This document shows positions 16,154-60,905 of a DNA stretch of 64,000 nt, piece by piece. The notes beneath the pieces were generated by a model. That model did not search any database, was not told the DNA's origin, and saw only the letters and a program-made list of their open reading frames with translations. Location of the stretch: contig JBAZTW010000003.1 in assembly GCA_041661665.1 (NCBI GenBank), positions 7,088 through 71,087 of the forward strand. The letters run 5' to 3'. How positions within the stretch are numbered: the stretch's first letter is position 1; each line of letters starts with the position of its first letter. The position numbers and the translations under genes are program-made. The stretch is from Phycisphaerae bacterium. Its GTDB lineage: Bacteria; Planctomycetota; Phycisphaerae; Sedimentisphaerales; UBA12454.

Positions 16154-16160
16154 CTGCTAT

Positions 16161-18501: not shown

Positions 18502-18561
18502 CATGATTATAGTGATCTGAATTTTTGTTGGCAGAAAAAGTTTAAAAAAAGATGGGTAGCG

Positions 18562-19245
18562 TTGTCTAAGAAAACAGAGCAAAAACATAAAGGTATTTGT
18601 GTACTATGTGGGAAAGAAGAGTATTTGACCAGAGAACACGTTCCCCCAAAAAATTTATTCTCTAAACCTCGTCCGAAGAATACAATTACAGCCTGGACTT
18701 GTAAACCATGCAATGCCAGCTATTCGCAAGATGAAGAATACTTCCGAATATATATTGCTGCGGGAGCTTCGCCAGATTCAGACTGCGGTCGTCTCTGGAA
18801 GGAAAAGGTAGAAAATTCAACATTTTCACGTAGCCCAGCATTACGCCAAAAACTTTCTGATGGCATGGATGTTATTCAGCAATATCACAAATTAAATCCG
18901 CTTAAGGATTTTGATGGCAAACCAATTCCCGACGAACTAATCCCATATGCACTTCCTTTAGAATCAGATCGTATTTGCAGGGTTATAAAAAAAATCATTC
19001 GGTGTTTGTACTTTAAACACTTCAAATTTGTACTTTCACCGGAGATAGAGATATCCATTAGCACTGAACCTTTAACTGAAGTGGAGGTGGAAAAAATTGT
19101 TATTGAGCATAAAGGTTTTGTAGGTAATAAAGTAGATAATTTATTTATTTATTGGTTTGACCAACAGGAAAAAGATGGGAGTATTGACTGGATACTTTTG
19201 TTTCAAGGTGGTTTTAAATATTTTCGTGCAACCATTAAAATGTGA
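18562..19245 (+). CDS. hypothetical protein with HNH-like CxxC...EH...CxxCN motif
   Basis: CVLCGKEEYLTREHVPPKNLF...CKPCNASYS resembles a beta-beta-alpha-Me finger; the rest is unrecognised. Confidence 0.45.
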   Translation: MSKKTEQKHKGICVLCGKEEYLTREHVPPKNLFSKPRPKNTITAWTCKPCNASYSQDEEYFRIYIAAGASPDSDCGRLWKEKVENSTFSRSPALRQKLSDGMDVIQQYHKLNPLKDFDGKPIPDELIPYALPLESDRICRVIKKIIRCLYFKHFKFVLSPEIEISISTEPLTEVEVEKIVIEHKGFVGNKVDNLFIYWFDQQEKDGSIDWILLFQGGFKYFRATIKM

Positions 19246-19446
19246 ATAAATAATGGCCATTTGGGCTGTTAAAAAAATACGCCGAAGGCCGATTCCATAA
19301 CTCAAAACTAAGAATTTAAAATTAAAAATTTCTTCTTTCCTCATTCAACGTTGGGCGTTAGATGTTGAATGTTCGACGTTCTTCTGGGTTTTACGTTCTT
19401 TGTACTATATTCTTTTTTTCTGATAACCGATAACTGAATTGCTGTT

Positions 19447-21306
19447 TTATCCTGTTGTTTTTCTTGCTGCTCTGCGTCTGTCTTCTTCTTTCAGGAATTT
19501 TTTGCGAATACGAATTGAATTTGGACAAATTTCGACATACTCATCTTCCTGAATATATTCCATCGCAATCTCAAGGCTCATTATGCGGGCGGGTCTTACT
19601 TTAGCGGCATCATCCTTGCCGGAGGAACGCATATTTGTAAGCTGTTTTAATTTGACAACATTTACGGGGATGTCGATTTCCTTACAGTGTTCACCGACGA
19701 CCTGGCCATCATAAACCCTGTCGCCCGGCGAAACAAAGAATATGCCCCTGTCATACAGCGCGTCTAAAGCGTAAGCTGTAACCTGGCCGGTTGTGGTAGC
19801 AACCATAACGCCTGCCTTGCGCTGCGGGATACTGCCTCGCATCAGGTCATATTTTTCAAACGAATGGTGCATAATCGCTCTGCCCTGCGTAGCGTTGAGC
19901 ATTCTTGCGTGCAGACCGAACAGGCCGCGCGACGGAATAATAAATTCCATATGCACAAAATCATTCGCGCCGCTTTTGGCGTCTATTTTTAATATCTCGC
20001 TTCGGCGGTCGCCAAGCAGACTCATCACAGAACCCTGACAATCAGTGGGACAGTCAACGGCAAGCAATTCTATAGGCTCATGTTTTTGGCCGTCCACAAT
20101 TTTTAAAATTACACTTGGTTTTCCAACACAAAGCTCAAAACCTTCACGGCGCATATTTTCGAGAAGTATGCCAAGGTGCATCAGTCCTCTGCCGGAAACA
20201 TTAAACTCTTCCGGCGTCTGACCTGGTGAAACCCGCAAAGCAACATTAGACTGAAGCTCTTTATCAAGTCTTATGCCGATTTGTCTGCTGGTGAGGTATT
20301 TGCCGTCTAAGCCTGCAAATGGGCCATCGTTGACACGGAAAGTCATCGACATCGTCGGCTCATCAACAGCGATAATCGAAAGCTGCGTCGGATTATCCGG
20401 GCAGGCGATTGTATTGCCGATGTCAACAGGGTCAAGCCCCGACACCGCGCAGATATCGCCGGCAAGAACTTCAGTAACGCGCCTTCTGCTCAGGCCGTCA
20501 AACTGATGAATATGCATAACCTTCTGTTGGGTATGTTCGCCGTTTGAATCAATAACTGTAACGCGCTGGTCTTCAGCGATTTGACCTGCAAAAACTTTGC
20601 CGATGGCGATTCTGCCGACATAATCCGAATACTCCAGACTTGTAACAAGCATCTGAAGCGGTGCGTCCGGGTCAACCTTTGGAGCCGGAATGTTTTTAAT
20701 AATAGTATCGAACACAATTTTCAGATTGTCGGTTTTCTTGTCCGGGTCATCCGAGGCCCAGCCTTCTCTGCCCGATGCGTAAATACAGGGAAAATCAAGA
20801 GCCTTGTCATCGGCACCGAGCTGCACAAGCAAATCGAAAACTTCATTTACAACCTCGTGCGGCCGACTATTCGGACGGTCAACCTTATTTATCACAACTA
20901 TCGGCCTAAGCTTATGTTCCATCGCCTTGGTAAGCACAAATCTTGTCTGCGGCATAGGCCCTTCAAACGCGTCAACCAAAAGCATAACCCCGTCAGCCAT
21001 TTTCAGAACACGTTCCACTTCGCCGCCGAAATCAGCGTGGCCGGGCGTGTCAATAATGTTAATTTTGTAATCGTCACCGTTGTCATCAGTGTAGTTGACG
21101 GCGCAATTTTTGCTCAAAATCGTTATGCCTCGTTCACGCTCAAGCGGGTTGGAGTCCATAATGAGGTTGTTTTCGCCACCGGCGAGTTTATCAAGGTCTT
21201 CAGTGCGAAACTGCCCCGATTGATACAATAATCTGTCAACCAAAGTCGTCTTGCCGTGGTCAACGTGGGCAATTATCGCTACATTACGAATATAATTTGA
21301 ATACAT
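19447..21306 (-). CDS. typA: translational GTPase TypA/BipA
   Basis: AHVDHGKTTL, DTPGHADF, NKVDR. Start set at the MYSNYIRNVAII Met. Confidence 0.92.
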   Translation of the reverse strand: MYSNYIRNVAIIAHVDHGKTTLVDRLLYQSGQFRTEDLDKLAGGENNLIMDSNPLERERGITILSKNCAVNYTDDNGDDYKINIIDTPGHADFGGEVERVLKMADGVMLLVDAFEGPMPQTRFVLTKAMEHKLRPIVVINKVDRPNSRPHEVVNEVFDLLVQLGADDKALDFPCIYASGREGWASDDPDKKTDNLKIVFDTIIKNIPAPKVDPDAPLQMLVTSLEYSDYVGRIAIGKVFAGQIAEDQRVTVIDSNGEHTQQKVMHIHQFDGLSRRRVTEVLAGDICAVSGLDPVDIGNTIACPDNPTQLSIIAVDEPTMSMTFRVNDGPFAGLDGKYLTSRQIGIRLDKELQSNVALRVSPGQTPEEFNVSGRGLMHLGILLENMRREGFELCVGKPSVILKIVDGQKHEPIELLAVDCPTDCQGSVMSLLGDRRSEILKIDAKSGANDFVHMEFIIPSRGLFGLHARMLNATQGRAIMHHSFEKYDLMRGSIPQRKAGVMVATTTGQVTAYALDALYDRGIFFVSPGDRVYDGQVVGEHCKEIDIPVNVVKLKQLTNMRSSGKDDAAKVRPARIMSLEIAMEYIQEDEYVEICPNSIRIRKKFLKEEDRRRAARKTTG

Positions 21307-24677: not shown

Positions 24678-25628
24678 ATGAGACCAAAACAGCTTGAGCA
24701 GTGGCAGTTTTTATTTATAGGAATGGCGATTGTGGGTATTGTTCTTTGGCCTTTGAGCCAATGGCTTACAACGCTAAGAGGCAGTTTTATTATGGCGGCC
24801 TATTTCGCCGCGGCTGTGGGTATTTTTGGGATACTGCAAGTGCTGGCGGAAACGATTAAAAATCTCAACCGGCAGCAGGAGAAAATAGAACAACTCAGCG
24901 AGTCGCTGACGGCAAACAAAAATCTGCTCGAACAAATTTCGCAGGAAGTTCGACTGTCCGAAGCGGCAAAGACTATCTGTTATCGCGATACCGACAGGCA
25001 GCTGCTGCGGGCAAGCGTGATTGAAAGACTTCATCAGCAGGATTTCGAGGCGACCTACGCGATGATTGACAACATTGAAAGGCGGCCGGAATATAAACAA
25101 TTAGCGGCAGATTTAAGACTTACCGCAGACCGATATCGCGACGCTACCGAGCAGGACAGAGTAAGCCAGGTAATTAATTATATCGACAGGCTTCTCGAAC
25201 AGCGTCAGTGGGCAAACGCCGAGACACAGATAGAAAGGCTCATTAAAAAATATCCCGATTCTGAAAAAGCCGGCGATATGAGCGAAAAACTTTTTGAGAA
25301 AAAAGAGAAAAGAAAAAGAGAGCTGCTCGACGAATGGGATACCGCGGTTAAGAAATCCGATATTGACCGGAGTCTTGAGGTTTTACATGAGCTTGACCTT
25401 TATCTTACGCCCAGCGAAGGGCTGGCTCTGCAGGAAGCGGCAAGCGAGATATTCAAAAACAAGCTGCATAATATGGGCGTTCAATTCTCGCTCGCTGTCA
25501 GCGATAAGCAGTGGGACAAGGCTCTTGAGACCGGACAAACCATTATCAGGGAATTTCCAAACAGCAAAATGGCTGACGAAATCAGAAACAAAAAAGAGAT
25601 ACTTCAGGAATTGGCGAAAAAACAATAA
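24678..25628 (+). CDS. hypothetical membrane-anchored helical/coiled-coil protein
   Basis: Two N-terminal TM segments followed by a long helical, TPR-like region. Confidence 0.5.
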   Translation: MRPKQLEQWQFLFIGMAIVGIVLWPLSQWLTTLRGSFIMAAYFAAAVGIFGILQVLAETIKNLNRQQEKIEQLSESLTANKNLLEQISQEVRLSEAAKTICYRDTDRQLLRASVIERLHQQDFEATYAMIDNIERRPEYKQLAADLRLTADRYRDATEQDRVSQVINYIDRLLEQRQWANAETQIERLIKKYPDSEKAGDMSEKLFEKKEKRKRELLDEWDTAVKKSDIDRSLEVLHELDLYLTPSEGLALQEAASEIFKNKLHNMGVQFSLAVSDKQWDKALETGQTIIREFPNSKMADEIRNKKEILQELAKKQ

Positions 25629-25665
25629 CCATCCGGCTTCGTCTTCGACTTCGCCGCGACAGGCA
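25629..25665 (+). repeat. repeat family R7 (37-mer CCATCCGGCTTCGTCTTCGACTTCGCCGCGACAGGCA)
   Basis: Identical to 35587-35623. Starts immediately after a stop codon. Confidence 0.85.
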
Positions 25666-25678
25666 AAGGACATAGAGA

Positions 25679-31737: not shown

Positions 31738-31796
31738 AATATTTCCTGTCAAAATAAAATAAAAAATCAAAGATACAAAATCAAAATTAAGTTTTT

Positions 31797-35225: not shown

Positions 35226-35586
35226 TACGCAAAATGCACCGGCAGCAGTAGGACCATATTCACAGGCGATTGACGCTGGAGTGTTTATCTTTCTGGCGGG
35301 ACAAATTCCGCTCGACCCGAAAACCGGCCAATTGGTCGAAGGCGGGGTTGATGTACAAACCAAACGGGTAATCGAAAATATCAAAGCTGTTCTGGCTGCG
35401 GCGGGAAGCGATTTGACAAAAATTGTTTCATCGACCGTCTATCTGACGGATATGGATAATTTCGCGAAAATGAATGAAGTTTACGCAAGTTATTTTACTG
35501 AGCCTTATCCGGCAAGAGTTACTATCGCGATTAAAAGCCTGCCGAAAAATGCGCTGGTGGAAATCGCGGTAATTGCGGTTAAGTAG
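35212..35586 (+). CDS. ridA: RidA family reactive-intermediate deaminase
   Basis: MKKINTQNAPAAVGPYSQAI...; overlaps the ogt end by 14 nt. Confidence 0.88.
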   Translation: MKKINTQNAPAAVGPYSQAIDAGVFIFLAGQIPLDPKTGQLVEGGVDVQTKRVIENIKAVLAAAGSDLTKIVSSTVYLTDMDNFAKMNEVYASYFTEPYPARVTIAIKSLPKNALVEIAVIAVK

Positions 35587-35623
35587 CCATCCGGCTTCGT
35601 CTTCGACTTCGCCGCGACAGGCA
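35587..35623 (+). repeat. repeat family R7 (37-mer)
   Basis: Identical to 25629-25665. Starts immediately after the ridA stop. Confidence 0.85.
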
Positions 35624-35660
35624 GAGAACACAGAAAAAAATTGTTTTGCGGAGAAAAATT

Positions 35661-36035
35661 ATGCAGGAAAAATTTGAAAATATGAATATCAGCGGCTCAT
35701 GTTTTATGGATGCAAATTTATCCAAGTCAAAATTTGAAAACGTGAATCTCTCTGAATCGGTTTTTCACAATATAAATTTCGGTAATGTTTCTTTTTCCGC
35801 TGCGCAAATGGGCGGCACTATATTCAGGCATATCGGCCTGCCGGACGAAATAAGAGGTACGAAAAAACAGAAGGGGCTTGTTTTTGAGCAGTGCGACCTC
35901 AACGATACTATTTTTAAAGAATGTAATCTTAAAAATGTCAGGATTGAAAAATCTGAAATTGATGGAATGACTATTGACGGCTATTCTGTTAAAGAACTGA
36001 TAGAACATTATAATGCCAAAGGCGGATGTAAATAA
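35661..36035 (+). CDS. pentapeptide repeat protein
   Basis: Repeats such as ANLSKSKFENVNLSESVFHNINFGNVSF. Confidence 0.75.
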   Translation: MQEKFENMNISGSCFMDANLSKSKFENVNLSESVFHNINFGNVSFSAAQMGGTIFRHIGLPDEIRGTKKQKGLVFEQCDLNDTIFKECNLKNVRIEKSEIDGMTIDGYSVKELIEHYNAKGGCK

Positions 36036-36077
36036 TTTTCATCACAAAAAACATAGGGGCATAGCAGAATTTTATAT

Positions 36078-36839
36078 ATGAAACTTAGTCGAATTATTAT
36101 TTTGTTTTTGTGTGCGGTTGGGATGATGTTTTTATCTGGCTGTTATTATTTTCGATTGCAGGAAACAAAAAGCCAATTGATGAATTTCGACAAGTATTAC
36201 ATTCTTGAAGACAGCAATCAATTCTCCATTTCCGCCAGTAAGCCGATGTTGTATCCCGATGATGTTGTTCGCATTTTTAAATCCGAACCGGCAGCGAAAG
36301 AACAAACAACGAGTGAATTGTATTATGATTATGTTCTCGAAAAACAGTATCAGGCTGGAAAAGATGAGCAGGGCGATTACAATATCAAATTGCGATTTGT
36401 GTTTACCGACGGGAAATTAAATAAGCTTTTGATAGATGAACGATTCTTTGCGATACTGCCAAAAAATGTTGTTGCTGCTTTGGCAAGGTCGTTAGGGGAC
36501 GCGAAAATAGACGTGAGGAATCGGCGTTTGTCGTTAAATCTAAATGTCAGTCAGATACATTTGCCTGATGTGAATGAAGTTGCCGCATCGCTCGGCAAGC
36601 CATCCTGGCAAAAAGATAATCGGTATGTTTATAATTATCTTCGCAAAAATCCAAACGAGAAAAATAATAACGGCAAACCTGCATGGGCAGATTTTGTTTT
36701 TGACAAGCAAGGCAAATGTATAAAATGCCGAAACAGGGTGTTTGGCATTCCGTTTGAGATGGATACTGAAAAACAGTTGCTGTCAGGCACAAAAACTGAT
36801 GGGCAGACGGTACAACTGAAAATAGTCGTTAATAGATAG
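36078..36839 (+). CDS. hypothetical lipoprotein
   Basis: Lipobox MFLSGC after a hydrophobic leader. Confidence 0.5.
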   Translation: MKLSRIIILFLCAVGMMFLSGCYYFRLQETKSQLMNFDKYYILEDSNQFSISASKPMLYPDDVVRIFKSEPAAKEQTTSELYYDYVLEKQYQAGKDEQGDYNIKLRFVFTDGKLNKLLIDERFFAILPKNVVAALARSLGDAKIDVRNRRLSLNLNVSQIHLPDVNEVAASLGKPSWQKDNRYVYNYLRKNPNEKNNNGKPAWADFVFDKQGKCIKCRNRVFGIPFEMDTEKQLLSGTKTDGQTVQLKIVVNR

Positions 36840-36844: not shown

Positions 36845-37258
36845 ATGGCAAATTCGCATCTTGTTATTTTGAAAAAGCAGTATCTTGATAAGATACTCGA
36901 CGGCAGCAAAACAATCGAGTCGAGACTTACAAAGGGTAGATGCCCGCCATTCGATTGCGTCTCGGTTGGTGATGTGTTGTTCTTTAAAGAATCCGCTGGA
37001 ATGGTTGTTGCCAAAGCGCAGGCGGCGGCGGTAAAGCAATTCAGCAATCTTACGCCGCAGGCTGTCGCAAAACTTAAAGCTGAATACAACGACCGAATCT
37101 GCGGCGATGATGAATACTGGCAGCTAAAGGCTGACAGCGAATACGCGACGTTAGTAAAATTAAAAAATGTGGAGACAATTCCGCCCCGGAGAATTTATAA
37201 AAAAGACTGGCGGGCGTGGGTGGTTTTGAAAAAGCCGAATGATTTCGGACTGCTGTAA
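36845..37258 (+). CDS. ASCH (PUA-like) domain protein
   Basis: 137 aa; KKQYLDKILDGSKTIESRL...VGDVLFFKE pattern. Confidence 0.6.
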   Translation: MANSHLVILKKQYLDKILDGSKTIESRLTKGRCPPFDCVSVGDVLFFKESAGMVVAKAQAAAVKQFSNLTPQAVAKLKAEYNDRICGDDEYWQLKADSEYATLVKLKNVETIPPRRIYKKDWRAWVVLKKPNDFGLL

Positions 37259-37440
37259 AAAAGGCACAAAGGAGCAAAGGCACATAGGCACAAAGAAACT
37301 GAAACACTGATTTAGCGGATTTTATTGCCGATAACTGATAACCGAGTTTCTGATAACTGTTTTGCGGTTGACAAAAAGATAGGTATGGTAGAGAATGTAC
37401 CGAAAGGATTTAGAGTTTGAGAATACAAGGAGCTTGATTT

Positions 37441-37764
37441 ATGGAAACGACAAAAATAGCGGTTTTCAAAGGTAAAGAGATACGAAAAACAATCCAAAAG
37501 AATGAATGGTGGTTTTCGGTTGTTGATGTATGTGAGGCATTGACAGAGAGCCCCGATGCCGGAGCGTATTGGAGAAAGTTAAAACAACGGCTAAAAGAAG
37601 AAGGAAGCGAAGTTGTGACATTTTGTCACGGGTTGAAATTGGAAGCGCCGGACGGCAAAATGCGTGATACTGATTGTGCCAATACCGAAGGCGTTTTTCG
37701 CATAATCCAGTCGATTCCGTCACCTACAATCAGAGCCCAAGCGACAGCGCAAGGGGTTTCGTAG
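37441..37764 (+). pseudogene. Bro-N / prophage antirepressor-like gene fragment
   Basis: FKGKEIRKTIQKNEWWFSVVDVCEALT...TEGVFRIIQSIPSP, then the ORF runs into repeat R2, whose GTAGGGG supplies the stop. Homologues as I recall them continue well beyond this point. Confidence 0.55.
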
Positions 37765-37788
37765 GGGCAAACCTATGTGTCTGCCCAC
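37761..37788 (+). repeat. repeat family R2 (GTAGGGGCAGACCTGTGTGTCTGCCCGC), diverged copy
   Basis: 3 mismatches to the copies at 54572 and 56693. Confidence 0.75.
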
Positions 37789-37791
37789 ATT

Positions 37792-37816
37792 CAGAGCCGC
37801 GAATGTTAATGAGCGG
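37792..37816 (+). repeat. repeat family R5 variant
   Basis: CAGAGCCGCGAATGTTAATGAGCGG. Confidence 0.55.
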
Positions 37817-37819
37817 TAT

Positions 37820-37832
37820 TCCCTGTTTTTTT
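37820..37832 (+). repeat. left copy of 13-bp direct repeat TCCCTGTTTTTTT
   Basis: The same 13-mer recurs at 40320-40332. Confidence 0.5.
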
Positions 37833-38029
37833 AATTTTAGTGCGGGGTTGACAAAGAAAATTAAAAATTAAATATCAAAAATAAAAATGACCCCGATGAG
37901 ATAGTCGAAGCGACATCTCACAGGGCAGGCAAAGCAAAATTTAAAAATAGGTGGCTGTTCCTATTTTTACTATTTTTAATTTTTACGTATTTTTTCAACA
38001 TCGAATTGTGTTAAGCAAGGAACTATGAG

Positions 38030-39148
38030 ATGGCAATACCTTTAATCGCATTTGATGAAACAGGAAATACAGGACAAAATTTACTTGACCCTGACCAGCC
38101 AGTGTTTGTTTTAGCATCTGTTAATTTAAGCTATGCAGAAACACAACGTGCATTAGAAATCTTAAATCCCAAAAAAGGACAGGAAGTCCATTTTGCAAGT
38201 TTCAGTAAAAGTTGTTCTGGTAAGGCACGGATCTTGCAATTTTGCCAATCAGATTTAATTTCATCAGATAAAATAAATATAAGTGTAATCCATAAGGGCT
38301 ACATGGTTGTCACAAAGGTCGTTGATTTGCTTATAGAGAACTTATGTTACGAAACTGGATTTGACCTGTATAAAAATGGTGCTAATATTGGAATGGCAAA
38401 TATTTTTTATATGTGCATTCCGACTTTTTGTGGACAAGATAACTTTAAAAGTTTTTTGGATAAATTTGTTTGCATGATACGAAATAAAGATGCCAGTTCC
38501 ATTACAGAGTTCTATAAAAGTGTTAATAATCTGAGCTTAACATGTAATAGTAAGCTCTTCAAAGAAATGATTGAGCTTATATTAGCTACCCAGTGTATTA
38601 TTGATGAAGTAATTACTAGGTGTAGTGTTGTTGATTTAGATCCAGCTGTTCCTGCGTTCGTGAATGATTGTATTGCATGGGGAGAACAATTGGGCTGCGA
38701 ATTTAACATAGTTCATGACCAATCTAAACCAATTGAGCATCAACAAGAAATACTTACCTGTTTAATGGCCAAGGATGAACCAGAAATTATAGTTGGATAT
38801 GACCAAAGAAAAATGAAATACCCTTTAAAGGTGCATGGCTTTAAGTTGTGCGATTCTAATGTTGTGCCTCAAATACAAATAGCAGATATTATAAGTGGCA
38901 CATATGGCTATGTGCTAAAAGGTCGCTTAGGAAAAAAAGTTGACAATAACTTTTTTGAAACTATAGAGAAAAGTAAGTTGTTAGGTTTGCCATGTCATCC
39001 ACTTTGGCCGTCAGATGAAGTAACACCAGAAGACTTAGGGACAATAGGACCAGATGCAGGTGATCCAAACCTTTATGTTGGAAATTTAATTGACAGACAA
39101 AAAATGAAGAGGATGCAAAAAAGTAAAGAATCTCGAACTACGCTATAG
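38030..39148 (+). CDS. DUF3800-like protein
   Basis: N-terminal IAFDETGNTG and C-terminal CDSNVVPQIQIADIISG match the DUF3800 hallmarks as I remember them. AT-rich codons. Confidence 0.65.
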   Translation: MAIPLIAFDETGNTGQNLLDPDQPVFVLASVNLSYAETQRALEILNPKKGQEVHFASFSKSCSGKARILQFCQSDLISSDKINISVIHKGYMVVTKVVDLLIENLCYETGFDLYKNGANIGMANIFYMCIPTFCGQDNFKSFLDKFVCMIRNKDASSITEFYKSVNNLSLTCNSKLFKEMIELILATQCIIDEVITRCSVVDLDPAVPAFVNDCIAWGEQLGCEFNIVHDQSKPIEHQQEILTCLMAKDEPEIIVGYDQRKMKYPLKVHGFKLCDSNVVPQIQIADIISGTYGYVLKGRLGKKVDNNFFETIEKSKLLGLPCHPLWPSDEVTPEDLGTIGPDAGDPNLYVGNLIDRQKMKRMQKSKESRTTL

Positions 39149-39172
39149 ACAGATAAAAGTGCAGAAATAAAA

Positions 39173-40312
39173 ATGACAAAAATGATTAATTTGCTTAAGG
39201 ATTATTTAAAGACAATTGATTGGAGTTTGTTTAGACGCGGTCCAAAAGGGCCAGGAACATTGCTTATTGTTTTATCTATAGATAGTTTTGCCCATAGCCA
39301 GGGGTTTGAGTACGAGAAAGAAGTCTTTCTTGGCCTAACAAGAAAAACAAACAATCATAAAGGATATATTGATATAATCATTAAAAGCCCCGATGGAATT
39401 AAGTACGCAATAGAAATTGACAGCAGTAATAAAAAATGGTCGCTTGAAAAACTTCTCCATGCGCATAGTATAGGATATGTGCCGATTTGGGTTCGTTGGC
39501 GTGTAAAAATAAATATTAACATTCCAGCAATCATAAATTTGATAGATTTAACAGAACGTGAGACTTTTTCCACCATGGATTTGGAGCGAAAAGATATGAC
39601 CAATAAACTAAAACATGTTGAAATTTACACTGATGGTGCTTGTCGTCCCAACCCAGGTATTGGCGGCTATGGCTTAATATTGATATATTGTGATACACGT
39701 AAAGAAATAAGTGGTGGTTTTAATCATACGACAAACAATAGAATGGAGATGTATGCTGCTATTAAGGGATTGGAGATGCTCAAAGAAGCTTGTAAAGTTA
39801 CTTTGTATAGTGACTCAAAATACTTGGTCAATTCCATGGCCAAAGGAAGAGTTAAGCTTTGGCGAGATAATAATTGGCAGCTTCGTAAACATAAACAGAA
39901 AGAAATTGCCAATATAGATTTATGGACAAGATTACTGGCTTTATGTGACATTCACGAAGTCGAATTCAATTGGGTAAAAGGACATGATGGAAATCCTCTA
40001 AATGAAAGATGTGACATTCTTTCCACAATAGCTTGGGAACAAAAAGATTTGCCTGCTGATGAAGGTTACAAGAAGTCCAATGCAATTAAAGTCAATCACG
40101 ACAATCAACCATATAAAAACTATTCAGCTTCTGATGTTAAAATAACTTATGAGGGTCAACCATGCAGAAAGTGCTCAACTCCTGTGGTTAAGAAATTCAC
40201 ACGTAAAAATAGGGATAAAAGTCGTAGAAAGTATTGGTTTGAGTATTATTTTCATTGTCCAAATTGTCAGACTATGTATATGACTGATGAAGCAAAACGG
40301 TATATGCCTTAA
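39173..40312 (+). CDS. fusion protein: N-terminal PD-(D/E)xK-like domain + RNase HI + C-terminal Zn ribbon
   Basis: Full RNase HI core VEIYTDGACRPNPG...NNRMEMYAA...LYSDSKYLV...WVKGHDGNPLNERCD. N-terminus has GYIDIII...YAIEIDSSNKK. C-terminus has CRKC...CPNC. Confidence 0.8.
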   Translation: MTKMINLLKDYLKTIDWSLFRRGPKGPGTLLIVLSIDSFAHSQGFEYEKEVFLGLTRKTNNHKGYIDIIIKSPDGIKYAIEIDSSNKKWSLEKLLHAHSIGYVPIWVRWRVKININIPAIINLIDLTERETFSTMDLERKDMTNKLKHVEIYTDGACRPNPGIGGYGLILIYCDTRKEISGGFNHTTNNRMEMYAAIKGLEMLKEACKVTLYSDSKYLVNSMAKGRVKLWRDNNWQLRKHKQKEIANIDLWTRLLALCDIHEVEFNWVKGHDGNPLNERCDILSTIAWEQKDLPADEGYKKSNAIKVNHDNQPYKNYSASDVKITYEGQPCRKCSTPVVKKFTRKNRDKSRRKYWFEYYFHCPNCQTMYMTDEAKRYMP

Positions 40313-40319
40313 GTGATTG

Positions 40320-40332
40320 TCCCTGTTTTTTT
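40320..40332 (+). repeat. right copy of 13-bp direct repeat TCCCTGTTTTTTT
   Basis: Lies 8 nt after the stop of the RNase HI fusion gene. Confidence 0.5.
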
Positions 40333-40367
40333 CTGAAAAAGGGAAAACAAAAATGACGAAGCCTGTG

Positions 40368-41597
40368 TTATCTGCTTCTGCCGATGTTATTGATTAGGCC
40401 GATGGACATAATGTTTGTCATAATGCTTGAGCCGCCATAGCTGATGAATGGGAGAGTCAAACCTGTAATAGGTATCAGGCCAATCGTCATACTGATATTA
40501 ATCAAAATCTGGATTGCGAAAAGCACGGCGAAGCCTGCGGCGATGTAACTGCCAAACGTGTCGAAACTCGATGAGGCAATGTCAATCGAGCAGGCAATCA
40601 GCATCGCATATAAACACAACAGCAATACAGCGCCCGCGAATCCCCACTGATGGCAAACCAGCGCGAAAATAAAATCATTATGTCTGTCAGGCAGGAATTT
40701 ATATTTTATAAATGGGCCTGCGCGGTAGCCCTGACCTGCGAATCCGCCCGAGGCGATTGCAAGTTTGGAACGCATAAGCTGATAGCCTGCGCCGATATCC
40801 CAGTTTCGCAGTCGTTCGGTATTTACGCCGAGCAATTTTGCAAGTGCGGGATGTTTTTCAACTTTGGTTCTGAGCCAGCTTGGACTGCCGTCAATTTTAT
40901 TCTGCAATAATACCGAGCTAACTCTCATTCGTTGATAGTCTTCGATACCGAGCCAGAGAATCGGAAAGGCAATCACTGCCAGCAGAATTATCACAAGCAG
41001 ATGTTTGACTTTCGCGCCGGCGATAAACAGCATCGACAGCAGCACCGGCATCATCAGCATAACCGTACCCAAATCAGGCTCACGATATATCAGGAGCATC
41101 GGAAACAGCGTCAGGACAAATGGCGGGATAAGCGAAGTGAAATTTCGGTAATTGCTTCGATACCGCAGATGCCAGGCCAGCGCGATGATGTAAGCGAACT
41201 TGAAAAACTCCGAAGGCTGAAACTGTATCGAACCGATAACAATCCAGCATCGCGAGCCGTGCTTGACGTTGACGAAGGGCATATCTATGAATTGATCCAG
41301 CACGAGCCAGAAAAGCATGGCGATAGTCGCCCAGTAAAGGACGAAGCTCATTGAGCCGAGTTTTTTGTAGCTGAATGAATTTATTATTATAAAGCCGAGA
41401 AAACCGACGGCTGCGAAGAGACATTGCTTTTTCCACAAGCTCGAATAGCCTGCGAACTGCTGCATTTCTGAATTTACGGGGTTGCCGGATGCGTAAATCA
41501 TCATTACGCCGATAGCAACGAGTCCGCCTGCGCAGGCCAGGAGTATCAGCCGAGTTGCCAGAAGTCTGCCTTTGAAGAATTCAAAAATATCGAACAT
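40368..41597 (-). CDS. SEDS family protein (RodA/FtsW)
   Basis: Multi-TM; ...TGLTLPFISYGGSS... Start set at MFDIFEFF. Confidence 0.85.
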   Translation of the reverse strand: MFDIFEFFKGRLLATRLILLACAGGLVAIGVMMIYASGNPVNSEMQQFAGYSSLWKKQCLFAAVGFLGFIIINSFSYKKLGSMSFVLYWATIAMLFWLVLDQFIDMPFVNVKHGSRCWIVIGSIQFQPSEFFKFAYIIALAWHLRYRSNYRNFTSLIPPFVLTLFPMLLIYREPDLGTVMLMMPVLLSMLFIAGAKVKHLLVIILLAVIAFPILWLGIEDYQRMRVSSVLLQNKIDGSPSWLRTKVEKHPALAKLLGVNTERLRNWDIGAGYQLMRSKLAIASGGFAGQGYRAGPFIKYKFLPDRHNDFIFALVCHQWGFAGAVLLLCLYAMLIACSIDIASSSFDTFGSYIAAGFAVLFAIQILINISMTIGLIPITGLTLPFISYGGSSIMTNIMSIGLINNIGRSR

Positions 41598-41715
41598 ATT
41601 TATAATGATAACAGAAGAATCGCAAAAAACAACGATTGGAGACACATAATCAGGACAAATCACATAAAGAACCCAAAATCCTAAATCTTAAACAAATCCG
41701 AATTACCAAAGCTTG

Positions 41716-41862: not shown

Positions 41863-42089
41863 ACCACCAAAGTTCCGTGCCAAACGGGGCGTGTTATGGG
41901 TTGACAGCATCACGGCATAGTCAGCTCAGGCCTCCGGCAGGACAATCCGTCCGAACTCGAAAACGGACACCGTGAAAGCTAAAAGAATTGAAAATTGTAA
42001 ATTGAACATTGAAGATTTTTGTATCTCTTAATGTCTGCCAGGATTTAATCTTCAATCTGCAATCTTAAATCTTCTATTTTCAATGATTT

Positions 42090-42161
42090 TACCCGGTGGT
42101 GTAATTGGCAACACAGAGGTTTTTGGTACCTCTATTTCTGGTTCGAGTCCAGACCGGGTAG
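42090..42161 (+). tRNA. tRNA-Gln (anticodon UUG)
   Basis: Manual cloverleaf. Acceptor TACCCGG/CCGGGTA, D arm GTGT..ACAC, anticodon stem GAGGT/ACCTC with loop TTTTGGT, T arm TCTGG-TTCGAGT-CCAGA. No encoded CCA. Confidence 0.85.
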
Positions 42162-42180
42162 TATAAAAAAATAAAATATC

Positions 42181-42220
42181 AAAAATTAAAAATAAAAATT
42201 GTGGATTCGCCTTTGGCGAA
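42181..42220 (+). repeat. repeat family R9 (AAAAATTAAAAATNAAAATTGTGGAWTCG + hairpin)
   Basis: Matches 52157-52199. Ends 11 nt before the glmU ATG. Confidence 0.7.
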
Positions 42221-47726: not shown

Positions 47727-49085
47727 ATGAACTCCGAGGTGATTTCAGGCAGAACGATGCCTGAATCGCTTGAGGCTGAGGCGGCGGTACTTGGGTCGAT
47801 GATACTCGACCCGGAGTGCATTGGTCTGGTAATTCAGAAGATAAAGGCGGACTCTTTTTATCGTCTGGAGCATCAGATGATGTTCGATGCCATTGTCCAT
47901 CTATGGGAAAAGATGGATACCCCGGAAAAGTTTGACCTTGTGCTTTTGCGGGATGAACTCAAAAAGCGAAGTCAAATTGACGAGGTCGGCGGGCCTGAGT
48001 ATCTGATGAAAATAGCCGAGTCTGTGCCTTCCAGCGCGAATATCGAGCAGTACGTCAACATTGTGCAGGAAAAGCAGATGCTGCGTGAGCTTATTGCCGC
48101 AGCAGGCGAAGTAATGACCGAAGCGTTTGACGCAGGCGGCGATGTGAGCGAAAAGCTCGACCGCGCAGAGCAGAAGATATTCCAGGTAACCGAAAAGAAA
48201 ATCAGCGGCGCGGCGATTTCAATTAAGGATTTGCTTACGCAGGCTTTTGAGGCGATTGATAAACGCGAAGGCCATCATGTTACAGGTCTTCCGACAGGCT
48301 TTACGGAGCTTGACGATTTGACGTGCGGCCTTCAGAGCGGCGAAATGATTGTAATTGCCGGCAGGCCGAGTATGGGCAAAACCAGTTTCGCGATGAATAT
48401 GGCCGAACATATCGGCGCTGATAATAATATGCCTGTCGTGATTTTTTCTCTTGAAATGAGCAAACAGCAACTGGCAGAGAGAATGCTTTGCAGCAGGGCG
48501 ATGATGGATTCGCAGTTAGTGCGCAAGGGAATGCTCAATGATGAGCAGTATCAGGAACTCGTTCAGGCGGCAAGCGAATTGAGCGATAAGCCTATTTATG
48601 TTGACGACAGCCCCGGCATAACTCCGCTGGAACTTCGAGGCAAGGCTCGCAGGCTCAAGGCTCAATATGGAATAAGATGTATATTTGTCGATTATCTTCA
48701 GCTTATGAGTGCCGGAGGCAGGGTTGAAAGCCGACAGCAGGAAGTCAGCGAGATGAGCAGATATTTAAAGGCATTAGCCAGGGAACTGGAAGTGCCCGTA
48801 ATTGTTTTGAGTCAGTTGAATCGTTCGCCGGAAGGCAGAGAAGGCCACAAGCCTCGAATGAGCGATTTGCGTGAAAGCGGCAGTATTGAGCAGGATGCGG
48901 ATGTTGTAATGCTTCTGCATCGTGAAGATTATTATCATAAGGGCGAGACCGATTACGAGAATACCAATAACGCCGAAGTGATTATCGCCAAGCAGCGTAA
49001 CGGCCCGACCGATACAGTAGAATTGAGCTTTAATGGTATGTGCACGCGATTTAACAATCGCGCCAGATCGCAGGAACCGTTTTAA
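47727..49085 (+). CDS. dnaB: replicative DNA helicase
   Basis: PESLEAEAAVLGSM, Walker A GRPSMGKTSF, SQLNR. Start set at MNSEV rather than the ORF start that overlaps rplI. Confidence 0.92.
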   Translation: MNSEVISGRTMPESLEAEAAVLGSMILDPECIGLVIQKIKADSFYRLEHQMMFDAIVHLWEKMDTPEKFDLVLLRDELKKRSQIDEVGGPEYLMKIAESVPSSANIEQYVNIVQEKQMLRELIAAAGEVMTEAFDAGGDVSEKLDRAEQKIFQVTEKKISGAAISIKDLLTQAFEAIDKREGHHVTGLPTGFTELDDLTCGLQSGEMIVIAGRPSMGKTSFAMNMAEHIGADNNMPVVIFSLEMSKQQLAERMLCSRAMMDSQLVRKGMLNDEQYQELVQAASELSDKPIYVDDSPGITPLELRGKARRLKAQYGIRCIFVDYLQLMSAGGRVESRQQEVSEMSRYLKALARELEVPVIVLSQLNRSPEGREGHKPRMSDLRESGSIEQDADVVMLLHREDYYHKGETDYENTNNAEVIIAKQRNGPTDTVELSFNGMCTRFNNRARSQEPF

Positions 49086-49098
49086 AAAAGTAAAAAAT

Positions 49099-49126
49099 CA
49101 GAGCCTGGAGCGATAGCGACAGGTGT
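49099..49126 (+). repeat. repeat family R4
   Basis: CAGAGCCTGGAGCGATAGCGACAGGTGT. Confidence 0.8.
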
Positions 49127-49151
49127 ATTATATTAGCAGGAAAGGGATTTT

Positions 49152-51503
49152 ATGCGGATTTTCGAGTTCTGTTTAAAAAACGGAGTGGTGCCGCGTTTTT
49201 CCGTTTTGGCAATAATGCTTGTTATAAGCCGTTATTGTTATGCGCAAGACCCGAATGTCGATGCTGCTGAATATCAGGGGAAAATCATTAACAGTGTGCA
49301 AACCGCAGGTAATGTCTATGTGAGCTACGCAAAGATAGTTTCGACAGTTAGAAGCAGGGCGGGAGAGGCGTTTGATATTGGCACGGTGCAGGAAGATGTG
49401 AGCAGAATTGCCGCGTTGCGCGGCGTCGAACTGGCGTATTACAGCGTTGCCGCTGCCGGCGAGAAAGTGGAACTTACTTTCGTTGTGAAAGAGAAAAATG
49501 TAATTCGCAAGATAACTTTCAGCGGCGACAAAAACTACAGCGACAAAAAACTGCTCGATGAAGTCGGATTCGCCAGAGGCGATTATTTTGATAAATTTAC
49601 CGCTCGGACAGGCGCCGAAAAACTTACCGAGTATTATAAGAAGAAAGGCTACCCGTTTGTAAAGGTTGATTACGATGATTCGCAAATCGGCCAGGGTGTG
49701 CTGAATTATAATATCGAATGCAGTCAGAAAGTAAAAATCAAAAAGCTTAAATTTAAGGGCAACTCGGCGATAAAGAGCAAAGAACTTAAACCTGTGGTTA
49801 AAAGCAAGCCCAAACAGTTTGGCATTTTTCAGAACTATTTCAAACAGCAGGTTATCGACGACGATATAGTAAATCTTCAGAAGGCGTATGACAGAAGAGG
49901 CTATCTCGATACAAAGGTCGGCGCCACATGGAATTTTGTAAAAAATAAAAAAGGCGCCGAAATTCTGTTCACCATAGAAGAAGGCAGGCAGTATGACGTT
50001 GAGAAAATAGAGCTTGTAGGCAATGAGTTTTTCAGCGATGCCAACCTGACCAGTACGTTCAGGCTCAAGGAAGGGAAATTTTACAGTAATGAAAAGGCTG
50101 ATTACGATAAAGATGAAATACTAAAGGCTTACAGGCAGACCGGCTTTGTGAATGTCAAAGCTGAATCCAAAAGAAGGTTCACCGATACTAATGACAAAGT
50201 AATCGCCCGTTTTGAGATAGAGCAGGGCGAGCGTTTTCGAATAGGACAAGTCAATATATCCGGCAACCGCGGCGTGCAGGACAAGGTCGTAAGACGCGTA
50301 CTTGATGAAAAGGAATTTAAGCCAGGCGAATGGTATAACGCCCATATAGCTCGAGGCGACGGCGAAGGCGAGCTTGAAAAAGATATCAAGAGCAATGTTT
50401 ATACCCAGACAGCGACGATTACGCCTGTCGACCATAACGTCCCCGGCGAGAAAAACGCAGAAGTCAGAGTTACCGAAGGCAAAACAGGCTCGGTAATGTT
50501 TGGCGCAGGCGTCAGCAGTTCGGATGGTCTGATTGGCCAGGTGATATATGAGCAGAGAAATTTCGATTACAAAAAATGGCCGAAAAGCTGGCGAAAATTT
50601 TTCTCCGAGGATTCCTTCAAAGGCGCAGGCCAGCGGTTGAGAATCGCCGCCGAACCAGGCACGCAGGTGAGCAGATATTCAATTACATGGACAGAGCCGT
50701 ATTTAAAAGATAAGCCGATATCGATGACACTGTCAGCTTCAAGTTGGCAGCGAGCCAGAGAAAGCTATGATGAAGAAAGGCTCAAAGGATATATCGGTTT
50801 TACTAAAAGGCTGAAGAAGGGGTATTACAGAATTCTGGCATTCAGATTTGAGGATGTTACCGTCGCAAACGTTGACAATGACGCTCCGAAAGAGGTAACG
50901 GATGTAAAGGGGAGCAATCTTCTTGCTGGTATAAAAATAGGCTTTGGAAGAAATACCACCGACAACCGGTATAGTCCGACGAAAGGCAAGAGTTATGAAT
51001 TGACTTACGAGCAGGTTACGCTTGACCATAATTTTGGTATTCTTGAGGGAACGTATCGCTGGTATAAAACGCTTCGCGAAGACCTTGCCAGAAGAAAAAC
51101 TGTTTTGGAAACAAAGCTGTATGCTGGTACAATTGTGGGCAACGCTCCGGTGTTTGAAAAATTTTACGCAGGAGGCAACGGCAGCATCCGCGGTTTCGAT
51201 TATCGCGGCATAAGCCCTCGTTCCGGGTCGGACAAAGACCCGATAGGCAGCAAATGGCTCGCAACAGCCAGCAGTGAAGTTGTAATGCCGATGGTAGGCG
51301 AGACGCTGGCGGGGCTTCTGTTTGTCGATACCGCTATGATTGAGACAGGCGGAATCAGGGCTTCGGTCGGTATCGGCGTGCAGATTATGATACCGCAGTG
51401 GTTCGGGCCTGTGCCGATGAGATTTGAACTTGGTCTGCCGGTTATGAAAAACGGCGAGGACGATACGCAGATGTTCAGCTTCTCGGTTGGAAGCCTGTTC
51501 TAA
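49152..51503 (+). CDS. bamA: outer membrane protein assembly factor BamA
   Basis: 783 aa; signal peptide, POTRA-like repeats, Omp85 barrel ending FSFSVGSLF. Confidence 0.88.
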   Translation: MRIFEFCLKNGVVPRFSVLAIMLVISRYCYAQDPNVDAAEYQGKIINSVQTAGNVYVSYAKIVSTVRSRAGEAFDIGTVQEDVSRIAALRGVELAYYSVAAAGEKVELTFVVKEKNVIRKITFSGDKNYSDKKLLDEVGFARGDYFDKFTARTGAEKLTEYYKKKGYPFVKVDYDDSQIGQGVLNYNIECSQKVKIKKLKFKGNSAIKSKELKPVVKSKPKQFGIFQNYFKQQVIDDDIVNLQKAYDRRGYLDTKVGATWNFVKNKKGAEILFTIEEGRQYDVEKIELVGNEFFSDANLTSTFRLKEGKFYSNEKADYDKDEILKAYRQTGFVNVKAESKRRFTDTNDKVIARFEIEQGERFRIGQVNISGNRGVQDKVVRRVLDEKEFKPGEWYNAHIARGDGEGELEKDIKSNVYTQTATITPVDHNVPGEKNAEVRVTEGKTGSVMFGAGVSSSDGLIGQVIYEQRNFDYKKWPKSWRKFFSEDSFKGAGQRLRIAAEPGTQVSRYSITWTEPYLKDKPISMTLSASSWQRARESYDEERLKGYIGFTKRLKKGYYRILAFRFEDVTVANVDNDAPKEVTDVKGSNLLAGIKIGFGRNTTDNRYSPTKGKSYELTYEQVTLDHNFGILEGTYRWYKTLREDLARRKTVLETKLYAGTIVGNAPVFEKFYAGGNGSIRGFDYRGISPRSGSDKDPIGSKWLATASSEVVMPMVGETLAGLLFVDTAMIETGGIRASVGIGVQIMIPQWFGPVPMRFELGLPVMKNGEDDTQMFSFSVGSLF

Positions 51504-51537
51504 AAAAATTAAAAATTAAAATTATGGAAGGTTAATT

Positions 51538-52155
51538 ATGAAGAAAACAAGTTTTGTTGCGATGGTTATTCTTGCGCCGGCGGTAATACTAACAGGTTTG
51601 CAGTATTCTCAGGCTGCCAAAGATAAGCCAGTATTGCCGGTAAAGATTGGTATTGTGAGCGTCAAGGAAGTTTTTGAGAAATGCCTGATGAAACAGACAA
51701 TCGAGAAGAGTCTCTCCGCTGAAGGCGATAAAAAATTCAACGAACTAAAAAAACTTGAGGATACAATCGAAGCTGACAAAACTGCTTTGAGCAAGCGCAA
51801 ACAGGACAGCGCTGATTATATGACAATGCTAAAGGCTTTAATGCTCAAACAGTCGGAGTTTGAGGCGCAAAAGGAATTTTATCAGCAGGAAATTACAGCG
51901 ATGGAAATGCAGGGCAAAGAAAAAATCTATCGCAAAATTCTTGAGGTGATTACGGTTTTAGCCAAGGAAAAAGGCCTCGATATAGTTCTTAGCAGAGATG
52001 ACAATTACCTCAGCAGGCCTGAATCATCTGATTCCGCGCAAAGTCCTACGGAATTAGTCCTTACAACAAAAACGCATAAACTGCTTTATTTTAATCCGGA
52101 ATTTGACTTCACCGCAGAAGCTTTGACCGCTATGGATAAGGCCAACCCGCAATAA
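51538..52155 (+). CDS. skp: OmpH/Skp family periplasmic chaperone
   Basis: Signal peptide and coiled-coil sequence; conserved position between bamA and lpxD. Confidence 0.75.
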   Translation: MKKTSFVAMVILAPAVILTGLQYSQAAKDKPVLPVKIGIVSVKEVFEKCLMKQTIEKSLSAEGDKKFNELKKLEDTIEADKTALSKRKQDSADYMTMLKALMLKQSEFEAQKEFYQQEITAMEMQGKEKIYRKILEVITVLAKEKGLDIVLSRDDNYLSRPESSDSAQSPTELVLTTKTHKLLYFNPEFDFTAEALTAMDKANPQ

Positions 52156-52156
52156 A

Positions 52157-52199
52157 AAAAATTAAAAATCAAAATTGTGGAATCGGCCTTTAGGCCGAT
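52157..52199 (+). repeat. repeat family R9
   Basis: AAAAATTAAAAATCAAAATTGTGGAATCGGCCTTTAGGCCGAT; ends 12 nt before the lpxD ATG. Confidence 0.7.
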
Positions 52200-54599: not shown

Positions 54600-54611
54600 A
54601 GTCAGAGTTTT

Positions 54612-54637
54612 GTAGGGTGGGCTCTTAGCCCACGCGG
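54612..54637 (+). repeat. repeat family R1
   Basis: Exact 26-mer. Confidence 0.85.
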
Positions 54638-54660
54638 TTACTATTTTCAGGAAAAGAATA

Positions 54661-55484: not shown

Positions 55485-55520
55485 TTCGTGGTTAGCCCCG
55501 GCAATACTTTGCCGGGGTTC
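55485..55520 (+). repeat. repeat family R8
   Basis: TTCGTGGTTAGCCCCGGCAATACTTTGCCGGGGTTC. Confidence 0.7.
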
Positions 55521-55547
55521 AGAGCCCAAGCGAAAGCGCAGGGTGTT
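55520..55547 (+). repeat. repeat family R3 (CAGAGCCCAAGCGAWAGCGCAGGGTGTT)
   Basis: Matches 56665-56692. Confidence 0.8.
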
Positions 55548-55549
55548 AT

Positions 55550-55598
55550 CAGAGCCGCGACAGCCTGCCATGAGTTTGTCGAATGGGTAATGGAGCGG
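55550..55598 (+). repeat. repeat family R5, expanded variant
   Basis: CAGAGCCGCGACAG...TAATGGAGCGG with an internal insert. Confidence 0.5.
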
Positions 55599-56645: not shown

Positions 56646-56664
56646 AAATAATTGTTAAAGCATT

Positions 56665-56692
56665 CAGAGCCCAAGCGATAGCGCAGGGTGTT
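56665..56692 (+). repeat. repeat family R3
   Basis: CAGAGCCCAAGCGATAGCGCAGGGTGTT. Confidence 0.8.
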
Positions 56693-56719
56693 GTAGGGGC
56701 AGCCTGTGTGTCTGCCCGC
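56693..56719 (+). repeat. repeat family R2 (1-nt shorter)
   Basis: GTAGGGGCAGCCTGTGTGTCTGCCCGC. Confidence 0.8.
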
Positions 56720-56735
56720 TTCCTTTTTAACAGTT

Positions 56736-56761
56736 GTAGGGTGGGCTCTTAGCCCACGCGG
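56736..56761 (+). repeat. repeat family R1
   Basis: Exact 26-mer. Confidence 0.85.
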
Positions 56762-56897
56762 AAATTAATAATTACAATGTCAATCTGTGCCTTTATCATT
56801 TTGTTAGAGTTTTCTAATAGACCAACAAAAATGCCGCAGGCCTTTTGCGAGGAACTGCGGCATTTATATTTTGTGAATCTATTTCGTCAGACAGAAA

Positions 56898-60844: not shown

Positions 60845-60905
60845 AAGTTTGTGTTATTATATTATATATCAGGGCAAGAAATTAGAATTTAAAAGGAGCA
60901 AAATT

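Follow-up and report, generated by a model that had tools for sequence, protein, structure and literature searches.

Two predicted nuclease genes as acquired and probably exchangeable cargo beside rodA in a Phycisphaerae bacterium

Variable cargo slots hold anti-phage genes, as in the moron slots of P2-like prophages. Published work assigns to the DUF3800 domain the motifs DE and QxxD and a fold like that of RNase H2, and links it to retron type VII and to a Cas12a2 branch (PMC7736814, PMC10910872). Here we describe an A/T-rich islet (positions 37820-40332) in a 64-kb stretch of DNA (positions 1-64,000, hereafter the window) from a metagenome-assembled genome (MAG) of a Phycisphaerae bacterium. 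The islet carries a DUF3800 gene followed by a gene for a three-part fusion of a nuclease-like N-terminal domain, RNase HI and a Zn ribbon. These two open reading frames (ORFs) are referred to as ORF1 and ORF2, and their NCBI product names are 'DUF3800 domain-containing protein' and 'ribonuclease HI', respectively. The DUF3800 family, RNase HI, PD-(D/E)xK nucleases and variable cargo slots are all kinds known already; the triple fusion and the occupancy of this slot are new forms of them.

We read the segment from about 37976 to 40367 as exchangeable, acquired cargo in a slot, consisting of two independent nuclease genes that are probably co-transcribed and do not form a conserved system, with a probability of about 0.68. 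The slot would be bounded on one side by the terminator that follows a Bro-N/PDC-S13 gene, which has decayed in this organism, and on the other by the stop codon of rodA. An ASCH-domain gene and rodA would be convergent neighbours ancestrally, and different relatives would now hold different A/T-rich cargo at the same site. The coordinates of all features are collected in Table 1.

The G+C content over 37801-40500 was 0.318-0.368 in 500-nt windows, against a mean of 0.452 (standard deviation 0.039) for the rest of the window. The G+C content at third codon positions (GC3) was 0.265 in ORF1 and 0.31, 0.29 and 0.28 in the N-terminal, RNase HI and Zn-ribbon segments of ORF2, compared with 0.43-0.55 in the flank genes ASCH, rodA, glmU, prs and rpsB. 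Both measures were uniformly low over ORF1 and all three segments of ORF2. The two ORFs are intact and co-directional with a gap of 24 nt, and the 3.1-kb insert contains no other ORF except a Bro-N remnant. Since the locus was 100% identical across three independent metagenome assemblies, the ORFs and the in-frame fusion in ORF2 are real and not an assembly artefact.

A scan for relatives of RodA gave five loci, L004 to L008 (L and P numbers denote fetched loci and proteins). In L005, L007 and L008, whose RodA proteins are 68-72% identical to that of the window, an ASCH homologue lies 0-110 nt from the 3' end of rodA, indicating that the convergent adjacency of ASCH and rodA is ancestral. The corresponding gap in L006 (RodA 78% identical) measures approximately 970 nt, with a DUF2321 Zn-ribbon ORF of 99 aa inside it. 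In the sister strain L004 (RodA 91% identical), the first gene after rodA is an A/T-rich ORF of 172 aa (GC 0.34), and next comes a full-length Bro-N gene, whose 278-aa product matched the PADLOC candidate PDC-S13 at 377 bits. Neither an RNase H gene nor a DUF3800 gene was present at the ASCH-rodA site in any of the five relatives. These empty sites and alternative cargoes demonstrate that the stretch is horizontally acquired DNA, and that ORF2 is not a syntenic rnhA.

The alignments with the relatives also located the edges of the acquired segment. On the right, the window is homologous to L004-L008 from 40340-40375 into rodA, and similarity stops at the rodA stop codon. On the left, nucleotide homology of the Bro-N gene to L004 covers 37408-37515 and 37673-37737 and ends at about 37737, after which the 3' two-thirds of the gene is replaced by dispersed repeats resembling repetitive extragenic palindromic (REP) elements. 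Further downstream, 37853-37891 and 37931-37975 align with the L004 sequence just behind the intact Bro-N gene, the first block being 97% identical over 37 nt. The shared flank contains a terminator-like hairpin at 37941-37969 (hairpin 37935-37985, z -2.8), and its two blocks, which adjoin each other in L004, are split by an inserted 39-nt hairpin element at 37892-37930 (free energy, dG, -16.5 kcal/mol; z -4.0). As the flank shared with L004 runs to 37975, the strain-variable cargo extends from about 37976 to the stop codon of rodA at 40368. An earlier note, made from the letters of this DNA without database searches, had described an A/T-rich, horizontally acquired pair of co-directional ORFs 24 nt apart, lying downstream of a truncated phage-type Bro-N gene, and all of these points were confirmed by the composition, the relatives and the match of the remnant to the first third of the PDC-S13 model.

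The slot resembles P2-type hotspots in that conserved anchors surround strain-specific A/T-rich cargo and in that the sister strain holds a defence candidate, PDC-S13. Unlike the P2 moron slots, it is chromosomal and is without visible phage structural or integration genes. A tRNA-Gln gene (42089-42162) was considered as an integration site and rejected, as rodA stands between it and the cargo. The corresponding region of L004 (8170-9635) comprises the intact PDC-S13 gene, the shared terminator and then the A/T-rich ORF, whose 172-aa product has predicted N-terminal membrane helices and is without a family match; this may be an arrangement of Bro-N with a variable effector. The loop of the 39-nt hairpin element, GTCGAAGCGAC, resembles the AAGCGA.AGCG core of a REP-like family.

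ORF1 passed the Pfam threshold for DUF3800 (PF12686) with 28.5 bits against a cut-off of 21, its residues 8-294 aligning with positions 4-148 of the 149-position profile. No match was found in NCBIfam or PADLOC v2.0.0, and a first scan of genome contigs with ORF1 gave no match either. A search of 5.8 billion proteins detected 98 homologues of approximately 360 aa. In an alignment of 55 homologues, D9, E52, K89, E103, D230, Q283 and D286 were invariant and E10 was nearly invariant, and both the DE motif (D9-E10, within FDETGN) and the QxxD motif (Q283/D286, within QIADII) are present. The AlphaFold model had a mean confidence (predicted local distance difference test, pLDDT) of 96. When it was compared with solved structures by Foldseek, the best E-value was 0.33 and the weak top matches were RNase HIII and RNase HII, in agreement with the published RNase H2-like assignments. 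ORF1 is treated here as a predicted nuclease, probably metal-dependent, with a predicted RNase H-like fold and a large helical insert of approximately 130 residues, belonging to the long form of approximately 360 aa.

The family of ORF1 was found in 189 plasmid records, 131 of them conjugative, and on 20 IMG/VR contigs. A distant relative lies in a P2-like phage between the tail-fibre assembly and tail-sheath genes (the G|X|FI slot), and other relatives occupy integrase-adjacent positions. Weak matches to the PADLOC candidates PDC-S51 and PDC-M04A were given by 8 and 6 of 55 homologues, respectively. The largest neighbour families of ORF1 homologues were P2-type prophage genes (8 loci), and no partner was conserved. 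A supposedly conserved upstream partner of DUF3800 genes on plasmids was discarded, as the two ORFs of about 200 aa concerned were mutually unrelated and absent elsewhere. We also searched for the eleven Rfam motifs associated with DUF3800 (DUF3800-I to XI; Weinberg 2017), and detected none in 37200-40500 at E-values up to 10 and none in 33 loci of ORF1 homologues. No Rfam family at all was found in the islet, and the region upstream of ORF1 folded no better than its shuffled versions (z -1.6). Nor did the 3.1-kb insert contain an adjacent or fused reverse transcriptase (RT) or an RNA family match of the kind expected for a retron type VII partner.

Compared with the known DUF3800 systems, namely the retron type VII partner or fusion, the TPR-DUF3800 protein of the Cas12a2 branch, PDC-S51 and PDC-M04A, ORF1 shares a Pfam match above the gathering score, the DE and QxxD motifs and an occurrence on mobile and defence-type DNA, and an RNase H-type fold is predicted for it. 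It differs from them in having no RT, Cas12 or TPR neighbour, in its long form, in scoring below the PADLOC thresholds and in lacking the eleven RNA motifs.

ORF2 scored 130 bits with Pfam RNase_H (PF00075) and 178.6 bits with the NCBIfam equivalog for ribonuclease HI (NF001236; cut-off 160). Its residues 146-299 align end to end with Chlorobium tepidum RNase HI (PDB 3H08) and E. coli RNase HI, and alignment with solved RNase HI structures confirmed a complete catalytic set of D154, E192, D214, H271 and D281. Thus the DEDD residues and the histidine of E. coli rnhA (PDB 1RNH/2RN2) and of 3H08 are kept. Unlike bacterial RNase HI, the protein has an extra N-terminal domain of 135 aa, a Zn-ribbon tail of 85 aa, a foreign composition and a non-syntenic position. 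Residues 142-379 are 54-61% identical to the top members of a family of thousands of proteins of about 225-235 aa, which includes members from Sedimentisphaerales and Chloroflexi, some with two ribbons. The combination of RNase HI with a Zn ribbon is therefore a common architecture; to our knowledge, no member of the family has been named or characterised. The proteins of 225-235 aa start at the position equivalent to M142 of ORF2. In ORF2, M142 has an ATG codon, which follows the linker TERETFSTMDLERKD and has a Shine-Dalgarno-like GGAG 9 nt upstream. We infer that this linker fits a former intergenic region, and that a product consisting of RNase HI without the N-terminal domain is possible from M142. 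What separates ORF2 from the rest of its family is the N-terminal domain, which among the matches returned was added at this locus only.

The N-terminal domain has relatives of its own. A profile search found approximately 50 stand-alone proteins of about 128 aa and 58-70% identity in Planctomycetes MAGs. By exhaustive HMMER search the family comprised 155 representatives, nearly all of 60-290 aa, with a few repetitive ones of up to 1,500 aa, and none of them carried RNase H. The triple fusion was found only in the cluster of ORF2 itself among the matches returned by the full-length search, on which this uniqueness rests, as the N-terminal profile search did not return that cluster. The AlphaFold2 model of the domain (pLDDT 93) gave Bax1, CinB, MspJI, SfsA, Card1 and NucS as top Foldseek matches, the best being Bax1 (E 3.5e-4, probability approximately 1.0). 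E81, K93 and W109 are invariant in the family, and E50, D67, D83 and K87 are nearly so. The domain thus appears to share the core fold and an acidic/lysine constellation with Bax1, NucS/EndoMS, SfsA, MspJI and Card1, but differs from them in its low identity (11-22%), the lack of a Pfam family and its motif order E...D...ExD...K. No Pfam match above threshold to a curated PD-(D/E)xK family was obtained for the domain, and two of 39 relatives touched PDDEXK_3 at an E-value of 0.018. In PADLOC, ORF2 touched only PDC-S26 (E 0.002 over 43 residues). The DUF3800-type hallmarks of ORF1, the composition of ORF2 from a nuclease-like N-terminus, a complete RNase HI core and a Zn ribbon, and an action of both products on nucleic acids had all been claimed in the earlier note. 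The first two were verified here, and the last agrees with the family and structure matches, by which both are predicted nucleic-acid enzymes.

Further relatives of the N-terminal domain, of about 152 aa, are conserved across Streptomyces and Kitasatospora. Some members of the family (P0271, P0360, P0240, P0263 and P0290) are fused to an N-terminal DUF4379 treble-clef zinc finger or to C-terminal helix-turn-helix-like tails, which suggests a DNA-directed role of the domain.

An enzyme that passes the equivalog cut-off for ribonuclease HI, is so named by NCBI and keeps every catalytic residue might simply be the housekeeping RNase HI of the organism, with a captured N-terminal extension, ORF1 as unrelated cargo and no part in any conflict. 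In favour of this explanation, RNase HI with a Zn ribbon is the common form among lineages related to this one, one such gene from Sedimentisphaerales being set among fab genes; the 64-kb window contains no other RNase H; and the internal start at M142 could yield an enzyme of normal length. We nevertheless consider it unlikely, because the five relatives have no rnhA at the site, even where RodA is 91% identical, because the GC3 of 0.29 lies well apart from that of the housekeeping genes, because the best non-self homologue among 5.8 billion proteins is only 61% identical, and because the nearest homologues stand in mobile or defence-type contexts. The possibility of ORF2 being the only, conserved and syntenic rnhA of the lineage, which the earlier note had named as a reason to abandon its proposal, was not borne out with regard to synteny.

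The two genes might alternatively constitute one cooperating defence system, acquired as a unit and attacking RNA:DNA hybrids of invaders with two RNase H-type enzymes and a DNA endonuclease. They run in the same direction with 24-33 nt and no terminator between them, and are identical in their deviant composition. Moreover, both would have RNase H-type folds, DUF3800 proteins partner RTs in retron type VII, and the slot holds a PDC-S13 candidate in the sister strain. We looked at the neighbours of homologues of either gene. Among 100 loci of ORF1 homologues (80 metagenomic and 20 viral, 68 of them with at least 1.2 kb downstream), none had a neighbour of the ORF2 type, i.e. an RNase H, Zn-ribbon or N-terminal-domain gene, within the flanks, while three contigs of the same locus served as positive controls. 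In the closest locus examined, L009 (58% identical), the ORF1 homologue is followed by an unrelated 737-aa protein.

The same picture was obtained from the side of ORF2. None of the eight members of the N-terminal family that were looked up stood next to an RNase H or DUF3800 gene. They lie between glgP and a peptidyl-prolyl isomerase (PPIase) gene, after the gene for pyruvate dehydrogenase E2, after McrBC (L122), after DprA, before a pentapeptide-repeat/ion-channel gene, or on short contigs with unrelated or unannotated ORFs. Likewise, none of the three RNase HI-Zn-ribbon homologues looked up had a DUF3800 or N-terminal-family gene beside it. Two of these three, the nearest homologues examined, have defence-island-like surroundings (L111 6001-7598 and L128 4348-8084). 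P0111, a 229-aa form, lies between a Fic gene (SoFic/PDC-S04) and a reverse transcriptase gene, near transposase and recombinase genes, and P0104, a form in which the Zn ribbon is present twice in tandem, has PD-Lambda-3_A (1e-41) as the gene immediately downstream. These islands are also a point in favour of a defence system. Neither protein matched a validated defence model in PADLOC v2.0.0, the check proposed in the earlier note, and the 13-mer discussed below delimits no unit. A conserved gene pair is rejected on the 100 loci and the 11 look-ups, in none of which homologues of the two genes were adjacent, and the two-gene module proposed earlier was not supported. Close spacing and a common composition are not enough to define a system, and we regard a cooperating pair of this kind as quite improbable.

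In L125 (5001-6298), L126 (5001-6421) and L127 (543-1963), from Planctomycetes MAGs, free-standing relatives of about 128 aa are followed by the pentapeptide-repeat/ion-channel gene, with start and stop codons overlapping or abutting. In L113, a gene of 130 aa predicted ahead of the RNase H homologue proved to be a spurious low-complexity ORF and not a member of the N-terminal family.

The earlier note had also drawn attention to a 13-mer, TCCCTGTTTTTTT, as bracketing the two genes. It is indeed present at 37820 and 40320, exactly 2500 bp apart and near the compositional edges, and the 64-kb window holds no further exact copy, only one with a single mismatch at 22288. The part of the claim concerning its rarity stood to this extent, and was weakened by Markov simulation, in which 21% of the 3.1-kb regions of islet composition acquired an exact direct repeat of at least 13 nt by chance. 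An end-to-end placement, in which one copy falls between the Bro-N remnant and ORF1 and its partner within the final 100 nt, occurred in 0.3% of the simulations, a test that was picked post hoc. The bracketing itself failed, as the left edge of the acquired unit is at about 37976 and not at 37820, the 123 nt of 37853-37975 inside the supposed element being Bro-N flank common to L004. In addition, the 13-mer was absent from all other fetched loci, empty and alternative sites included, and no recombinase (integrase or transposase) and no terminal inverted repeats were found in the stretch. By the L004 alignment, the simulations, the absence elsewhere and the lack of a recombinase, the 13-mer is rejected as a target duplication or attachment (att) site, and a discrete 2.5-kb mobile element inserted with such a 13-bp duplication is highly improbable.

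Exchangeable cargo of two independent genes thus remains the reading we prefer, and several observations weigh against it. Those free-standing proteins that are close to the N-terminal domain look conserved within their lineage rather than mobile, and the Sedimentisphaerales homologue of the RNase HI-Zn-ribbon part lies among genes of fatty-acid synthesis (fab). The validated PADLOC models were matched by neither ORF1 nor ORF2. The model of ORF1 had no significant match among solved structures, and the N-terminal domain of ORF2 is a PD-(D/E)xK nuclease by prediction from fold and motif, with an atypical E-D-ExD-K arrangement. A functional pair of recent assembly could likewise explain why the two genes are tightly spaced and identical in composition. 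Finally, ORF2 could still be the working RNase HI of the cell, 64 kb of the genome having been seen.

As to substrates and role, we infer the following. ORF1, as the product of a single gene, would act alone as a metal-dependent nuclease where mobile elements and their hosts are in conflict, be it in defence, exclusion or abortive infection. In ORF2, RNase HI together with the Zn ribbon would bind RNA:DNA hybrids and degrade the RNA strand, whereupon the tethered endonuclease domain may act on adjacent DNA; an RNase HI-only product may be made in addition from the internal start. A defence reading is plausible from the context, that is, the PDC-S13 slot, the P2 slot, the PADLOC candidates, the defence islands and the conjugative plasmids. 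More speculatively, and with little likelihood in our estimation, ORF2 might be a single-protein effector, in which the RNase HI-Zn-ribbon part finds RNA:DNA hybrids of invaders (R-loop-primed intermediates, reverse-transcription products or retron-like multicopy single-stranded DNA, msDNA) and the PD-(D/E)xK domain cuts DNA there. It would perhaps work with ORF1 as a newly assembled module that is specific to the lineage and directed at hybrids, and the RNase HI-Zn-ribbon subfamily closest to it would perhaps be an unrecognised component of defence islands.

Table 1. Coordinates of the slot, its cargo and associated repeats in the 64-kb window
Feature	Position	Strand	Evidence or remark
ASCH-domain gene, left anchor of slot	36845..37258	+	Pfam ASCH; homologues near rodA in relatives
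Bro-N/PDC-S13 remnant, 107 aa	37441..37764	+	PADLOC PDC-S13 model positions 1-99 of 286, E 4e-42
REP-like dispersed repeat cluster	37729..37819	.	Repeat families D5 and D19
Left copy of TCCCTGTTTTTTT	37820..37832	+	Exact match; upstream of L004-shared sequence
Ancestral Bro-N 3' flank with terminator-like hairpin	37853..37975	+	Alignment to L004
ORF1, 372-aa stand-alone DUF3800 protein	38030..39148	+	Pfam DUF3800; phrog_12991 2e-69
ORF2, 379-aa chimeric protein	39173..40312	+	Likely true start 39182 (homologues begin MINLL)
ORF2 N-terminal domain, aa 1-135	39173..39577	+	Free-standing protein of ~128 aa elsewhere; predicted PD-(D/E)xK fold
ORF2 RNase HI core, aa 142-295; internal ATG at M142	39596..40057	+	3H08 1e-42; E. 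coli RNase HI 1e-38
ORF2 Zn ribbon (C331, C334, C362, C365)	40142..40309	+	Block EGQPCRKCSTPVVK...YYFEYY.CP.C kept in homologues of ~230 aa
Right copy of TCCCTGTTTTTTT, in weak hairpin 40320-40344	40320..40332	+	Exact match; dG -7.8 kcal/mol, z -1.1, not significant
rodA (SEDS), conserved right anchor	40368..41663	-	Pfam FTSW_RODA_SPOVE

Several families of short, dispersed, G+C-rich hairpin repeats of the REP-like type occur in the window, for example GTAGGGTGGGCTCTTAGCCCACGCGG and TCAGAGCCCAAGCGA.AGCGCAGGG. Copies were located at 16117-16155, 54601-54639, 56725-56763 and 61992-62030; at 37729-37819, 55518-55558 and 56663-56703; and at 49081-49140 and 61948-62007. Repeats of the families D5 and D19 recur at 54569, 55518 and 56663, and a related unit stands after rodA in L004 in the opposite orientation. 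A different, A/T-rich leader, AAAATATCAAAAAT.AAAAATAAAAAT, was found at 37845-37888, 42156-42199, 5409-5452, 31744-31787, 51502-51529 and 52155-52182. It is placed directly before start codons, such as that of glmU, appears before ORF2 as AAATAAAAATGAC at 39165 and is also present after the Bro-N gene of L004; it resembles an upstream or translation-initiation element typical of the lineage. In addition, a 51-nt direct repeat (25626-25676 and 35584-35634) is 92% identical between copies 10 kb apart, the second lying at the end of a RidA-like gene.

Further A/T-rich patches are present at 17401-19600, 35601-36500 and 60301-61200, that of the islet being the longest. The patch at 17401-19600 (GC down to 0.33) contains a lipoprotein-like ORF of 244 aa (17767-18501) and a Cys-rich ORF of 227 aa (18562-19245) with an HNH-like start, CxxC...EHVPPKN. 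The patch at 35601-36500 holds a pentapeptide-repeat-like ORF of 129 aa and the start of a 253-aa ORF without a Pfam match, and that at 60301-61200 the end of an ATPase-like ORF of 418 aa and the start of a membrane ORF of 275 aa.

In Phycisphaerae-type Planctomycetes, the locus gives evidence of an exchange slot on the chromosome, lying between ASCH and rodA, in which small A/T-rich cargoes differ by strain and include a PADLOC defence candidate, PDC-S13, in the sister strain L004. It also flags two protein groups as candidate conflict nucleases: the family of ORF1, a long stand-alone form of DUF3800 often met with on conjugative plasmids and in the moron slots of prophages, and the RNase HI-Zn-ribbon lineage, which has Fic, reverse transcriptase and PD-Lambda-3 genes as neighbours. 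As a natural experiment, the triple fusion of ORF2 would join the recognition of RNA:DNA hybrids to a predicted DNA endonuclease fold.

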